Positions 50,328 through 56,609 of a stretch of 64,000 bases of DNA are shown here, piece by piece. The translations under genes were made by a program, and so were the position numbers. The notes beneath the pieces were generated by a model that made no database searches, was not told the DNA's origin, and saw only the letters and a program-made list of their open reading frames with translations. How positions within the stretch are numbered: position 1 is the first letter of the stretch; each line of letters starts with the position of its first letter. The DNA is taken from assembly GCF_988243305.1 (NCBI RefSeq), contig NZ_OZ547136.1. The stretch is one strand, 5' to 3'.

Positions 50328-51572
<1,245 letters not shown>

Positions 51573-51628
51573 TGGATTTGGGCGGAGCGTTGACTCCGCC
51601 TTTGTTATGTCACAAAAAGGATAAAACA

Positions 51629-52348
51629 ATGGCTACTCCACACATTAATGCAGAAATGGGCGATTTCGCTGACGTAGTTTTGATGCCAGGCGACCCGCTG
51701 CGTGCGAAGTATATTGCTGAAACTTTCCTTGAAGATGCCCGTGAAGTGAACAACGTTCGCGGTATGCTGGGCTTCACCGGTACTTACAAAGGCCGCAAAA
51801 TTTCCGTAATGGGTCACGGTATGGGTATCCCGTCCTGCTCCATCTACACCAAAGAACTGATCACCGATTTCGGCGTGAAGAAAATTATCCGCGTAGGCTC
51901 CTGTGGCGCTGTTCTGCCACACGTAAAACTGCGCGACGTCGTTATCGGTATGGGTGCCTGCACCGATTCCAAAGTTAACCGCATCCGTTTTAAAGACCAT
52001 GACTTTGCCGCTATCGCTGACTTTGACATGGTGCGTAACGCAGTAGATGCAGCTAAAGCACTGGGCATTGATGCTCGCGTTGGTAACCTGTTCTCCGCTG
52101 ACCTGTTCTACTCTCCGGACGGCGAAATGTTCGACGTGATGGAAAAATACGGCATCCTCGGCGTGGAAATGGAAGCGGCTGGTATCTACGGCGTCGCTGC
52201 AGAATTTGGCGCGAAAGCCCTGACCATCTGCACCGTGTCTGACCACATCCGTACTCACGAGCAGACCACTGCCGCTGAGCGTCAGACCACCTTCAACGAC
52301 ATGATCAAAATCGCACTGGAATCCGTTCTGCTGGGCGATAAAGAGTAA
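51629..52348 (+). CDS. deoD: Purine nucleoside phosphorylase DeoD
   Basis: Start at [34 protein letters not shown] (239 aa). Confidence 0.95.
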
Positions 52349-52380
52349 TTGTGTTTCGCTGAAAGGCGAACGTCGTGTTA

Positions 52381-52413
52381 AGCCGGAGTGGGAGACCGCT
52401 CCGGCTTTTTATT
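52381..52413 (+). terminator. Rho-independent terminator of the deo operon
   Basis: AGCCGGAG-loop-CTCCGGCT followed by TTTTTATT, about 30 nt after the deoD stop. Confidence 0.65.
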
Positions 52414-52514
52414 ATCTATTCATTTCTCTCTCCAGCTTGAATATTTTCGCTATACTTTTCAGTGAAATGTGTTAATAAATCTATTCAAGTATCTATTCAC
52501 GAATCTATTCATTA
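52414..52514 (+). promoter_or_regulatory. Array of ATCTATTCA direct repeats (4 copies; the last 3 tandem at 12-bp spacing) abutting the yjjJ start codon
   Basis: Copies at about 52414, 52479, 52491 and 52503. No recognisable Shine-Dalgarno lies between the last repeat and the ATG. Confidence 0.35.
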
Positions 52515-53846
52515 ATGAGCGAACTGACCGATCTTTTATTGCAAGGGCCGCGTTCTGCCCCGGAATTGCGCCAGCGTCTGGCAATCAGTCAGGCGACGTT
52601 CTCACGCCTTGTTGCCAGAGAAGATCGGGTGATTCGCTTTGGTAAAGCACGGGCAACGCGATATGCACTGCTGCGTCCTTATCGCGGAATTGAGCGTATT
52701 CCCGTATGGCGAGTGGACGATGCCGGAAAGGCGCATAAATTCGCCGACATCCGGTTGTGCTGGCCGCAGGGAAGTTGTCTGGTAACAGGCGCAGATGGCG
52801 ACGAACAGTGGTTTGATGGTTTGCCCTGGTATTTGACCGATCTGCGACCGCAGGGGTTTTTGGGGCGCGCGTGGGGCAGGAAGTTAGCCGCGCAACTGAA
52901 TCTTACTGAAGATATCCGTCTCTGGCAGGAAGAAGATGTGCTCTACGCCCTGACCGTATTTAGCGGTGAATACACCGGCGGCTGGCTGGTCGGGGAGGGG
53001 AATTATCAGCGATGGATTACTGCACAACGCCCTGCGGCAATTCATCTGGATCAAAAACTCACCCGTTATGAACAACTGGCGCATGATGCACTGGCAGGAG
53101 AAATTGTGGGTTCTTCTGCGGGCGGCGAGCAGCCAAAATTTACCTGCTATGCACAAACGCCGTCAGGCAATAAACATGTGCTGGTTAAATTCACCGTGCC
53201 ACAGCAAACCGCGGTCAGCCAACGTTGGGGCGACTTGCTTATTGCGGAATCTATTGCCGCGCAAATCCTGCGCGACGGTGGGATCCACGCCATCGAGTCA
53301 ACGGTGCTTGTAACAAGTAACAGGCAGGTATTCCTTGAAGCGGAACGATTTGACTGCAAAGGTAACGATGGTCGCTTGCCCATTGTGTCGCTGGAGGCGG
53401 TGCAGAGTGAGTTTATCTCTTCTCCGGGATCGTGGCCGGAGGCTATGCGCCGTTTGTGTGAGCAACAACTTGTCACTCACCAGAGCGTGGCGCAAACAGA
53501 AGTGATCTGGGCGTTTGGGCGACTTATCGCCAACAGCGATATGCACGCAGGCAATTTATCATTTTATTTATCTGAACCACCATTTGCGCTGACGCCCGTC
53601 TACGACATGCTGCCGATGGCCTATGCACCAAACAGCGCCGGAATGTTGCGTGATGCTGCCATTGAGGTGAGGTTTGATCTTAACGTCAGTAAAAGTGCAT
53701 GGTTAACGGCGATCCCGCTGGCGCAGCAGTTCTGGCAAACGGTCGCCGGAGATCCGCGTATCAGCGAGGCATTTCGCCACATTGCACAAGAAATGCCGGA
53801 AAAAATCCGGCAAATCGAAGGGAAAGTTGCCCGCATGGGCGGGTAA
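52515..53846 (+). CDS. yjjJ: HipA-family Ser/Thr kinase toxin homologue with N-terminal HTH, YjjJ
   Basis: 443-aa ORF with an N-terminal HTH (…ISQATFSRLVAREDRVIRFGKARATRYAL…) and a C-terminal HipA-like kinase core (…DMHAGNLSF…). Confidence 0.88.
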   Translation: MSELTDLLLQGPRSAPELRQRLAISQATFSRLVAREDRVIRFGKARATRYALLRPYRGIERIPVWRVDDAGKAHKFADIRLCWPQGSCLVTGADGDEQWFDGLPWYLTDLRPQGFLGRAWGRKLAAQLNLTEDIRLWQEEDVLYALTVFSGEYTGGWLVGEGNYQRWITAQRPAAIHLDQKLTRYEQLAHDALAGEIVGSSAGGEQPKFTCYAQTPSGNKHVLVKFTVPQQTAVSQRWGDLLIAESIAAQILRDGGIHAIESTVLVTSNRQVFLEAERFDCKGNDGRLPIVSLEAVQSEFISSPGSWPEAMRRLCEQQLVTHQSVAQTEVIWAFGRLIANSDMHAGNLSFYLSEPPFALTPVYDMLPMAYAPNSAGMLRDAAIEVRFDLNVSKSAWLTAIPLAQQFWQTVAGDPRISEAFRHIAQEMPEKIRQIEGKVARMGG

Positions 53847-54863
53847 CTACCGCACTGCCCCCGCTATCCATGCCGACAACTCCCGTAGCTCTTTTTCCTG
53901 TTCCGGGAAGTCAACCAACAGCGCTTCGCACTCCTGTTGCAGCATATCTGCGCGGTACAGGCAGCCTTGCAGTCGCCCGGCGAGGGCTTCCAGCGGCGCG
54001 GGGTTGAGGCTGTCGGTAAACACCTGGGCGCGGGTGATATGGCCTTTTTCAACGTCGAAATGCAGTTCCACGCCGCCCCAGGTAAAGCGTTCATCCAGCA
54101 GATGCGAGAATGCCGGAGCCTGACCGAAGTTCCATTCCCAGCTACTCTGACGGGCAAAGGTTTCGGCGAAGTTTGGCAAGTCTGGCGTTTTGTCCGGGGA
54201 GATGATTTCCGCTTCCACGCGCTCGCCATAATGGGCGAAAAAGGCCTCGGTTATGGCCTCGCAAACCTGCTCATGGGTGATCCCCGGCAGCAATTCGGTC
54301 AGATTGGTCACGCGGGAACGTACCGAGGTAATGCCTTTCGCCGCCAGTTTCTTTTTATCCGGGTTGAGATAGTTTGCCAGGCGGCTAAGGTCGGCATTAA
54401 GTAGCAAGGTGCCGTGATGGAAGCCACGATCTTTGGTTTCGCGATAGGCTGAGCCTGAGACTTTGCGGTCGCCTTCGGCGGTTTTCACCACCAGATCGTT
54501 ACGGCCGGACGCTTCGGCGCTGACGCCGAGCGCGTTCAGCGCATTAAGCACAATCGACGTGGAGATAGTTTTATCGTACTCCGGCTTGCCAGCCATAAAG
54601 GTAAAGCAGGTATTACCGAGATCGTGGAACACCGCGCCGCCACCGCTACTGCGCCGCGCCAGGCGGACGTTATCTTCTTCCATCCGCCGGGTATTACACT
54701 CTTTCCACGGGTTCTGCGCGCGACCAATCACTACCGTGTCGGCATTGCGCCAGAGAAACAGAACGCGCTGCGTGGCGGGCATCTGGCGAAAAATACACTC
54801 CTCCACCGCCAGGTTAAACCACGGGTCGTAAGAGTCAGAGATGAGCAGGCGTAATGTGGACAT
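53847..54863 (-). CDS. lplA: Lipoate-protein ligase A LplA
   Basis: 338-aa [32 protein letters not shown].... Confidence 0.95.
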
Positions 54864-54890
54864 AACGATTTCCTTTCTTGTAGTAATGGG

Positions 54891-55535
54891 TCACTCTTTT
54901 TTCTCGCTTTCTTCCTCTTCCGGCACCGGTTTGCTGGCGGTTAACAGGAAGGGCGATTGCTGCCAGCGGGTGCGTTTACCCTGTAGCAGCGTGCGGGTCA
55001 GCACTACGCCGATTGCCAGTGAGAGCAGCAACATCAGGCGTAAAATGTTAGTGGTGTTATCCACCTGTTGGGCTTCGGTGGCGAGCGTATGGGTGTCGAG
55101 CGTCAGGCGCAGATAGCCGAGCGGTCCGTTTTTCCCGGCAATTGGTTCGACAATCTGCTGGTTAAAATAGCCGCCCGCTTTTTTGCCGTCGAGCGCCAAC
55201 CGGTCGCGCACTTCGACGCTTTCGCCAGAACGGGCGATAAGATCGCCTTGTTCGTCATACACGCCCGCGTCGAGGATGCGGCTTTCATCCGTTAACTGAT
55301 CGAGGATCGCCTGAATGCGTTTGTCATCCGGTGAGTCGGTACGCATCAGCGGTGCAACGTTCAGCGTCACCTGACGCGCCAGGGTGCGGGCCAGTTCTTC
55401 CAGCTGTGGATTACGCTGTCGCTGGTGGTTTTGACTAAACCATGACGCTCCCTGCATCAGCGCCACTAACAAGGCAAGACAGAACAGGACAATCACTGCC
55501 CGATGCAGCCGGAATTTCAGTTTTGTGCGAGCCAT
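54891..55535 (-). CDS. ytjB: Inner-membrane protein YtjB (Smp)
   Basis: 214-aa ORF with an N-terminal TM segment; divergent from serB. Confidence 0.88.
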   Translation of the reverse strand: MARTKLKFRLHRAVIVLFCLALLVALMQGASWFSQNHQRQRNPQLEELARTLARQVTLNVAPLMRTDSPDDKRIQAILDQLTDESRILDAGVYDEQGDLIARSGESVEVRDRLALDGKKAGGYFNQQIVEPIAGKNGPLGYLRLTLDTHTLATEAQQVDNTTNILRLMLLLSLAIGVVLTRTLLQGKRTRWQQSPFLLTASKPVPEEEESEKKE

Positions 55536-55640
55536 CTTCCACCCTTTGAAAATTTGAGACTTAATGTTGCCAGAAGCAATGGATACAAGGTAGCCTCATG
55601 CGTTATTTTCCCTGCTTCGAACGATTTTACAGGAGCCTTA

Positions 55641-56609
55641 ATGCCTAACATTACCTGGTGCGACCTGCCTGAAGATGTCTCTTTATGGCCGGGTCTGCCT
55701 CTTTCATTAAGTGGTGATGAAGTGATGCCACTGGATTACCACGCAGGTCGTAGCGGCTGGCTGCTGTATGGTCGTGGGCTGGATAAACAACGTCTGACCC
55801 AATACCAGAGCAAACTGGGCGCGGCGATGGTGATTGTTGCCGCCTGGTGCGTGGAAGATTATCAGGTGATTCGTCTGGCAGGTTCACTCACCGCGCGGGC
55901 TACGCGCCTGGCCCATGAAGTGCAACTGGATGTCGCGCCGCTGGGGAAAATCCCGCACCTGCGCACGCCGGGTTTGCTGGTGATGGACATGGACTCCACC
56001 GCCATCCAGATTGAATGTATTGATGAAATTGCCAAACTGGCCGGAACGGGCGAGATGGTGGCGGAAGTAACCGAACGGGCGATGCGCGGCGAACTCGATT
56101 TTACCGCCAGCCTGCGCAGCCGCGTGGCGACGCTGAAAGGCGCTGACGCCAATATTCTGCAACAGGTGCGTGAAAATCTGCCGCTGATGCCAGGCTTAAC
56201 GCAGCTGGTACTCAAGCTGGAAACGCTGGGCTGGAAAGTGGCGATTGCCTCCGGTGGCTTTACTTTCTTTGCTGAATACCTGCGCGACAAGCTGCGCCTG
56301 ACAGCCGTGGTAGCCAATGAACTGGAGATCATGGACGGTAAATTTACCGGCAATGTGATCGGCGACATCGTTGACGCGCAATATAAAGCGAAAACCCTGA
56401 CCCGCCTCGCGCAGGAGTATGAAATCCCGCTGGCGCAGACCGTGGCGATTGGCGATGGAGCCAATGACCTGCCGATGATCAAAGCGGCAGGGCTGGGGAT
56501 TGCCTACCATGCCAAGCCAAAAGTGAATGAAAAGACGGAAGTCACCATCCGTCACGCTGACCTGATGGGGGTATTCTGCATCCTCTCCGGCAGCCTGAAT
56601 CAGAAGTAA
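55641..56609 (+). CDS. serB: Phosphoserine phosphatase SerB
   Basis: Start at MPNITWCDLPEDVSLWPGLPLSL (322 aa); HAD motif DMDSTAI. Confidence 0.93.
   Translation: MPNITWCDLPEDVSLWPGLPLSLSGDEVMPLDYHAGRSGWLLYGRGLDKQRLTQYQSKLGAAMVIVAAWCVEDYQVIRLAGSLTARATRLAHEVQLDVAPLGKIPHLRTPGLLVMDMDSTAIQIECIDEIAKLAGTGEMVAEVTERAMRGELDFTASLRSRVATLKGADANILQQVRENLPLMPGLTQLVLKLETLGWKVAIASGGFTFFAEYLRDKLRLTAVVANELEIMDGKFTGNVIGDIVDAQYKAKTLTRLAQEYEIPLAQTVAIGDGANDLPMIKAAGLGIAYHAKPKVNEKTEVTIRHADLMGVFCILSGSLNQK

Follow-up and report, generated by a model that had tools for sequence, protein, structure and literature searches.

In the Escherichia coli DNA studied here, yjjJ (hipH) and lplA converge with no nucleotide between them, and the junction reads ggcgggTAACTAccgcac in both the open reading frame list and the raw sequence. 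With stop codons that touch, there is no intergenic DNA in which either transcript could stop. Where, then, does each transcript end, and does the resulting arrangement matter to either gene? These questions were addressed in a 64-kb window (the whole stretch of DNA analyzed, 64,000 nucleotides) by comparing the locus with related genomes and with published K-12 data.

The first-pass annotation placed the last base of the yjjJ stop codon at 53846 and the first base of the lplA stop codon at 53847, in a convergent arrangement with zero spacing. The open reading frame list and the raw sequence agree with those positions, and the layout matches the RefSeq coordinates of K-12 (MG1655 hipH, 4621769-4623100; lplA, 4623101-4624117; Table 1). 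The two genes likewise abut in the RefSeq annotation of XL1-Blue, a K-12 strain. Over 52300-54900 the window aligned with MG1655 without gaps (offset 4569254), and identity in this region was 99.7% to one E. coli clinical strain and 96.5 to 96.7% to K-12. A locus comparison found the same six letters at the junction in K-12 and E. albertii. The lengths of the YjjJ and LplA C termini are constant in orthologues of many genera, indicating that the positions of the two stop codons are not annotation artifacts.

Table 1. Coordinates of features at and around the yjjJ-lplA junction (window positions)
Feature	Position	Strand	Basis or remark
yjjJ/hipH CDS, 443 aa, HipA-family Ser/Thr kinase	52515..53846	+	ORF list, Pfam, RefSeq K-12
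Rho termination region, equivalent of MG1655 4622772	53518	-	329 nt past lplA stop; coarse
Moderately C-rich lplA-sense RNA, 120-220 nt past lplA stop	53627..53726	-	C/G ~1.6
Terminator-like element, yjjJ codons 427-433 (M-P-E-K-I-R-Q)	53784..53812	- (lplA-sense)	Consensus scan, fold
Short G+C hairpin CCCGC-ATGG-GCGGG, last yjjJ codons, 6 nt from lplA stop	53830..53843	.	Sequence, fold
yjjJ stop codon TAA	53844-53846	+	ORF list, raw sequence
Junction TAACTA, back-to-back stop codons, 0-nt spacer	53844..53849	.	Raw sequence
lplA stop codon TAG (= CTA)	53847-53849	-	ORF list, raw sequence
C-rich, G-poor 80 nt after yjjJ stop, candidate rut-like Rho loading	53847..53926	+	32 C, 14 G, C/G 2.29
lplA CDS, 338 aa, lipoate-protein ligase A	53847..54863	-	ORF list, Pfam, RefSeq
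Rho termination region, equivalent of MG1655 4623524	54270	+	424 nt past yjjJ stop; coarse

Pfam supported the identities proposed for both genes, a HipA-like kinase and a lipoate ligase. YjjJ matched HipA_C (PF07804; E value, 1.5e-20; residues 200 to 428), and LplA matched LplA-B_cat (PF21948; 9.8e-62) and Lip_prot_lig_C (PF10437; 2.9e-19). The YjjJ protein of the window shares about 97% identity with the E. coli YjjJ cluster and with the K-12 allele. Experiments have shown that YjjJ/HipH has Ser/Thr kinase activity, that its overproduction is toxic, and that it carries an N-terminal helix-turn-helix (HTH) domain (PMC8262856). The HTH is put at residues 15 to 34 in that work; a Pfam search of YjjJ at an E value of ≤0.01 gave no HTH match. 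HipH is described as a solitary, monocistronic toxin with no linked antitoxin gene (PMC8262856), and neither the open reading frame list nor the MG1655 annotation has an antitoxin gene in the deoD-lplA interval. In published data, the hipH promoter region is H-NS associated and responsive to c-di-GMP. Upstream of hipH we also observed a conserved element of four TCTATTCA boxes (at 52415-52422 and 52480-52511); a literature search for this motif returned unrelated primer matches only. One part of the initial description did not hold. lplA had been called an essential lipoylation gene, but LplA is a lipoate-scavenging ligase that acts in salvage and is redundant with lipB (Morris et al. 1995, via PMC4398509; PMC9307952).

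Abutting convergent genes proved to be a routine layout in E. coli. Across 150 kb of MG1655 annotation (three 50-kb stretches, a small sample), 6 of 28 convergent pairs had gaps no larger than 2 nt: hipH-lplA and cueR-ybbJ (0 nt), ytjC-rob and yfeH-ypeB (-4 nt), chiX-ybaP (-2 nt), and ypdC-fryA (2 nt). Given this proportion, zero spacing is ordinary for convergent E. coli genes, and the yjjJ-lplA abutment is not beyond chance.

Published K-12 data bear directly on where the two transcripts end. ExcludonFinder, which takes transcript ends from RNA-seq coverage and requires overlap in at least 50% of 58 MG1655 transcriptomes, lists yjjJ-lplA among 165 convergent excludons (PMC12288877, NAR 2025, Table 1 of that paper). 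Adams et al. 2021 (PMC7815308) compared reads per 800-nt window between cells treated with bicyclomycin, a Rho inhibitor, and untreated cells, and their Supplementary file 2 contains a Rho termination region on each strand of this locus. On the plus strand, antisense to lplA, upstream and downstream reads at 4623524 changed from 106 and 32 without treatment to 132 and 142 with bicyclomycin (Rho score, 3.56; p = 1.8e-8). On the minus strand, antisense to yjjJ, the corresponding reads at 4622772 changed from 77 and 44 to 67 and 102 (Rho score, 2.66; p = 7.9e-5, near the authors' cutoff of 1e-4). Both positions were carried to the window with the offset given above; they were calculated as ratios between 800-nt windows in a single bicyclomycin experiment, with a precision of a few hundred nucleotides. 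All of these expression data are K-12 data; identity between K-12 and the window is 96.5% over 52300-54900. Location antisense to an annotated gene is the largest class of Rho termination regions in that study (51.5%).

In K-12, therefore, the two transcription units overlap and bicyclomycin-sensitive regions lie in both partner genes. The read-through and antisense overlap claimed in the first-pass annotation are borne out by these data, and the RNA-seq or 3′-end check that it proposed is largely answered by them; transcription on each strand runs into the partner gene and overlaps. There is indeed zero intergenic DNA, but the argument that no room is left for a terminator takes it for granted that terminators are intergenic and is misleading: the published Rho termination regions fall within the coding sequence of the partner, and yjjJ codons contain a terminator-like hairpin with a T-rich tail, oriented for lplA. 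The spacing, the transcript overlap, and the two-strand Rho dependence of yjjJ-lplA are already known from the reference annotation and published datasets.

Sequence composition next to the junction is consistent with Rho-dependent termination. Untranslated RNA rich in C and poor in G ahead of the termination zone, a trait of Rho terminators, is present on both strands and is weaker on the minus strand. The C/G ratio of the 80 nt following the yjjJ stop ranks at the 99th percentile when every 80-nt window of the 64 kb is considered (95th percentile, 1.71; 99th percentile, 2.25). The best stretch after the lplA stop falls between the 90th and 95th percentiles of the window background. A terminator scan of the plus strand past 53846 found no intrinsic-terminator-like element 3′ of the yjjJ stop, and the plus-strand fold of 53830-54000 was no better than those of shuffled sequences (z = +0.3). 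An Rfam search of 51500-56000 matched no RNA family. An internal antisense promoter, rather than yjjJ read-through, might in principle account for the plus-strand signal within lplA; promoter prediction inside lplA found no such promoter on the plus strand.

These observations point to an ordinary compact junction of long standing, at which two convergent genes with weak expression meet and their overlapping read-through is terminated by Rho; we consider this explanation probable. RNA polymerase would continue from each gene into the coding sequence of its partner, where the read-through RNA would be untranslated and Rho would terminate transcription a few hundred nucleotides in. The yjjJ and lplA transcription units would consequently overlap as sense and antisense RNA across the junction. 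Rho would be expected to load on the C-rich, G-poor 80 nt right after the yjjJ stop and, on the other strand, on the weaker C-rich stretch 120 to 220 nt after the lplA stop. The hairpin in yjjJ codons 427 to 433 may halt or pause part of lplA transcription only, and no regulatory purpose would be required.

A greater role for that hairpin is conceivable. An intrinsic terminator for lplA within the yjjJ coding sequence could end most transcripts about 55 to 63 nt past the stop, producing a short overlap with Rho as a backup. The element is well placed for this role. It begins 35 nt past the lplA stop and has a 7-bp stem with 5 G-C pairs (TGCCGGA/TCCGGCA at 53794-53812), a 5-nt loop (TTTTT), and the tail TTTCTTGTGC at 53793..53784; the 80 nt after the lplA stop fold with an energy of -28.5 kcal/mol (z = -3.4). 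Elements of its quality are rare, with 17 per 128 kb of strand in the window (about 1 per 7.5 kb), several of which are true terminators, and yjjJ contains no other Watson-Crick hairpin of at least 7 bp with at least 5 G-C pairs. It is unchanged in the window, K-12, and E. albertii, though neighboring codons vary. Kosakonia pseudosacchari has a hairpin in this codon register (TGGGCGA/TCGCCCA) in which three pairs differ by compensatory changes, but its tail has only three U residues.

Other results make it unlikely that this hairpin ends most lplA transcripts. The curated Term-seq list of Adams et al. (PMC7815308) has no 3′ end in 46227xx-46232xx, yet the nearby deoD terminator is present in it at 4621665, which corresponds to window position 52411, at the T-run of a hairpin at 52380-52407. 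lplA is weakly expressed, so the absent Term-seq end is no proof against termination at the hairpin; the SMRT-Cappable-seq supplements hold no entry for yjjJ or lplA. The bicyclomycin-sensitive region lies 276 nt beyond the hairpin, which argues for substantial read-through. Moreover, the hairpin is absent in eight other lineages whose gaps do not exceed 7 nt (Salmonella, two Citrobacter lineages, a Klebsiella sp., Pluralibacter, Cedecea, Dryocola, and Scandinavium). A conserved embedded terminator with covariation was rejected as a general feature because the register is found in two lineages only and other tight-gap lineages lack it. The element is best treated as an unconfirmed candidate, possibly a leaky intrinsic terminator or a pause site for lplA, and Rho may not be the sole mechanism that ends lplA transcripts.

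A second hairpin, with a 5-bp all-G/C stem, sits exactly at the gene boundary. Such a structure might place head-on collisions of converging RNA polymerases, as proposed for bidirectional terminators; the collision model needs a stem-loop between convergent genes (bioRxiv 10.1101/2022.10.23.513370). No T-run borders this hairpin on either side, and it is without the A- and T-runs that flank bidirectional terminators. Expression of both genes is weak, at about 100 reads per 800 nt (PMC7815308), so collisions are expected to be rare, and transcription runs several hundred nucleotides beyond the junction on both strands (PMC7815308). Termination by collision at the boundary is accordingly extremely improbable.

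To place the junction in an evolutionary context, LplA relatives were scanned with one genome per species, giving 80 Enterobacteriaceae loci. At most of the 80 loci, deoD and lplA are directly convergent, with a spacer of 49 to 95 nt that contains hairpins or REP-like repeats. Many genera carry a yjjJ homologue (49 to 71% amino acid identity) at the corresponding position and in the same orientation, and in 15 of 18 nonredundant Enterobacterales lineages the gap between yjjJ and its convergent partner, lplA or ytjB, is -17 to +25 nt. The gaps are -17 nt in Pantoea (partner, ytjB); -4 nt in Pluralibacter, Cedecea, and Dryocola; 0 nt in E. coli, E. albertii, and Scandinavium; 2 nt in Klebsiella sp. 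RIT-PI-d; 4 nt in Salmonella; 6 nt in Citrobacter freundii; 7 nt in Citrobacter sp. Cu233; 9 nt in Erwinia (partner, ytjB); 15 nt in K. pseudosacchari; 20 nt in a relative with 71% identity; and 25 nt in Silvania. Larger gaps were found in Kosakonia cowanii (55 nt), Leclercia (70 nt), and Pseudocitrobacter (118 nt), where hairpins or REP-like repeats fill the spacer. Fragments of yjjJ persist in Phytobacter and Kosakonia sp. S29. The shared slot, the tight gaps across genera, and the yjjJ fragments together show that the tight junction is old and that yjjJ has been lost repeatedly. The zero gap is one value within a narrow, drifting range. Compaction specific to Escherichia, following insertion of yjjJ into an ancestral deoD-lplA spacer, was also considered and was rejected on wider sampling: equally tight or overlapping yjjJ junctions occur in Salmonella, Citrobacter, Cedecea, Dryocola, Pluralibacter, Scandinavium, Erwinia, and Pantoea.

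Within E. coli, the junction is a minority arrangement. Among 5,426 complete genomes, at least 80% of 52400-54950 was covered in 1,344 and the junction was in one piece in 1,297. In 4,063 of the 5,426 (about 75%), yjjJ is replaced by a gene for an 87-amino-acid HTH_3/Xre-type protein that lies on the lplA strand, codirectional with lplA and 31 nt downstream of it. We asked whether the HTH gene could be a derivative of yjjJ; this was rejected, as no DNA or protein similarity was found on either strand. The dimorphism of yjjJ and the HTH gene at the deoD-lplA slot is old. The absence of yjjJ beside lplA in about 75% of E. coli genomes argues against a need of lplA for the overlap, and judging from these genomes the yjjJ-lplA junction is dispensable. 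The spacing of the two genes as first noted matters little; the TCTATTCA element and the yjjJ/HTH gene dimorphism may be worth more.

The wider distribution also bears on whether the overlap is regulatory. In a functional excludon, hipH and the ytjB-lplA operon would antagonize each other through transcriptional interference or RNase III cleavage, with read-through from the operon yielding RNA antisense to the 3′ portion of hipH and read-through from hipH doing the converse. The published listing of the pair (PMC12288877) and the status of hipH as a solitary toxin (PMC8262856) fit such a role, as does the retention of a tight junction with the ytjB-lplA operon across Enterobacterales, even where ytjB is the partner and lplA is missing. 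At a 0-nt gap, however, any 3′ untranslated region counts as overlap, so the listing is nearly automatic, and tight convergent junctions are common in MG1655. We found no report of reciprocal expression or RNase III processing of yjjJ-lplA in the excludon and HipH literature. In addition, most E. coli genomes and most genera have lost yjjJ or carry a replacement while lplA is unchanged, and several lineages have spacers of 55 to 118 nt made up of hairpins or REP-like repeats. We regard mutual antagonism as highly unlikely.

A one-sided version, in which selection keeps the junction tight because read-through from ytjB-lplA, as antisense RNA or polymerase traffic, restrains HipH in place of the missing antitoxin, would be a long shot. 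Conservation of the junction is the only observation in its favor, and neutral compaction accounts for this conservation just as well. If true, antisense restraint would provide a concrete control mechanism for an orphan toxin kinase; control of HipH kinase activity was described as unknown in 2021 (PMC8262856). The compact junction with Rho-terminated overlap requires neither form of regulation.

Among known systems, the kinase gene belongs with HipH (YjjJ) of clade X of the HipA-homologous kinases (Gerdes et al. 2021), with which it shares the HipA_C domain, the length of 443 amino acids, and monocistronic organization; relative to K-12 HipH, the locus is the same, an adjacent antitoxin gene is likewise absent, and no difference was found. 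Bidirectional intrinsic terminators described in SEnd-seq studies share with this locus a convergent gene pair and hairpins near the boundary. Unlike them, the yjjJ-lplA junction has no intergenic hairpin with A- and T-runs, and its sole terminator-like element is one-directional and lies in the yjjJ coding sequence. With other E. coli convergent excludons from ExcludonFinder (cueR-ybbJ, ytjC-rob, and yfeH-ypeB), the pair shares overlapping units defined by RNA-seq. cueR-ybbJ also has a 0-nt gap and the other two pairs overlap by 4 nt, so yjjJ-lplA is not distinguished among them; the shared trait is the overlap of units, whereas the functional hallmark of an excludon is mutually exclusive expression. 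The resemblance to Rho-dependent termination (Peters 2012; Adams 2021) includes a C-rich, G-poor stretch after the stop, with positions here coarse to a few hundred nucleotides, and read-through on both strands that responds to bicyclomycin and lies antisense to an annotated gene. Convergent genes that abut or overlap, such as these, do not lack terminators; termination, mostly Rho dependent, sits in the coding sequence of the neighbor.

The place between deoD and lplA, filled in the window by yjjJ (hipH, a HipA-family kinase), is dimorphic in E. coli. Among complete E. coli genomes, about 25% carry yjjJ here and about 75% carry an 87-amino-acid HTH_3/Xre gene that is unrelated to yjjJ, has a G+C content of 41%, and lies on the lplA strand. 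Homology between the two alleles breaks directly after the yjjJ ATG and inside the lplA stop codon, which reads TAG next to yjjJ and TAA next to the HTH gene. Homologues of the HTH gene (51 to 54% identity) also occupy this slot in Superficieibacter (L019) and in an Enterobacteriaceae metagenome-assembled genome (L023), and both cargo types are therefore old.

Upstream of yjjJ lies a repeated box, TCTATTCA, which occurs four times in the whole 64-kb window, each time at this site. The three proximal copies are in tandem with a period of 12 nt, and the last stops 3 nt short of the yjjJ ATG. We compared 19 upstream regions, two of them from E. coli and others including Erwinia and Pantoea, where protein identity is about 50%. 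The distal box was present in all 19, at approximately -100 (-112 in Pantoea); at least one proximal box (with no more than one mismatch) was likewise found in 19/19, and most had all three. The boxes are also present in the E. coli HTH allele and, as judged by eye, at HTH-carrying loci of two further genera. We found no earlier report of the box element in the literature, and there is no obvious Shine-Dalgarno sequence ahead of yjjJ. The four-box element is a candidate operator, possibly bound by the N-terminal HTH of HipH.

Coordinates of features at the deoD-lplA slot, in compared loci (L numbers, own coordinates), and of other convergent pairs in MG1655
Feature	Position	Strand	Remark
deoD terminator	52380-52411	+	12-bp stem, then TTTATTAT
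Distal box	52415-52422	+	-100 from yjjJ ATG, directly 3′ of deoD terminator
Proximal boxes	52480-52487, 52492-52499, 52504-52511	+	-35, -23, -11
Slot, yjjJ allele	52515-53846		
Slot, HTH allele	L002 2540-2831; L004 3205-3468		
Empty slot, Escherichia whittamii	L006 ~5015-5096		
yjjJ-ytjB junction, Erwinia	L095 3832/3842		gap 9 nt
yjjJ-ytjB junction, Pantoea	L096 3810-3826		17-nt coding overlap
cueR-ybbJ	MG1655 514400/514401		gap 0; on excludon list
ytjC-rob	MG1655 4634441-4634444		gap -4; on excludon list
yfeH-ypeB	MG1655 2527941-2527944		gap -4; on excludon list
ypdC-fryA	MG1655 2501987/2501990		gap 2

The deoD terminator matches a 3′ end that a published Term-seq study placed at MG1655 position 4621665 (PMC7815308) and classed as "orphan", its distance from the deoD stop being greater than 50 nt. 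The deoD-yjjJ spacer (52408-52514) has a G+C content of only 26%, and a genomic SELEX study (PMC3946193) flags it as an H-NS site that also contains a site for RpoD. These properties would fit with yjjJ, the toxin gene, being silenced.

In Escherichia whittamii the slot is empty: after the hairpin of the deoD terminator the sequence runs ...tttttaattcatcaatTAACTAccg. The locus still has part of a box and the hexamer TAA-CTA that marks the yjjJ/lplA junction elsewhere, and it looks like a clean yjjJ deletion. In Erwiniaceae, lplA is missing from the locus and yjjJ is directly convergent with ytjB; the gene ahead of yjjJ in Pantoea is a yjjG-like HAD hydrolase, not deoD. In E. coli strain 6EVA, ytjB (L002 3876-4520) is annotated as a pseudogene with an internal stop.

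Other tight convergent pairs, drawn from a sample of the MG1655 annotation, are included in the table with their gaps and any place on the published excludon list (ExcludonFinder; PMC12288877).
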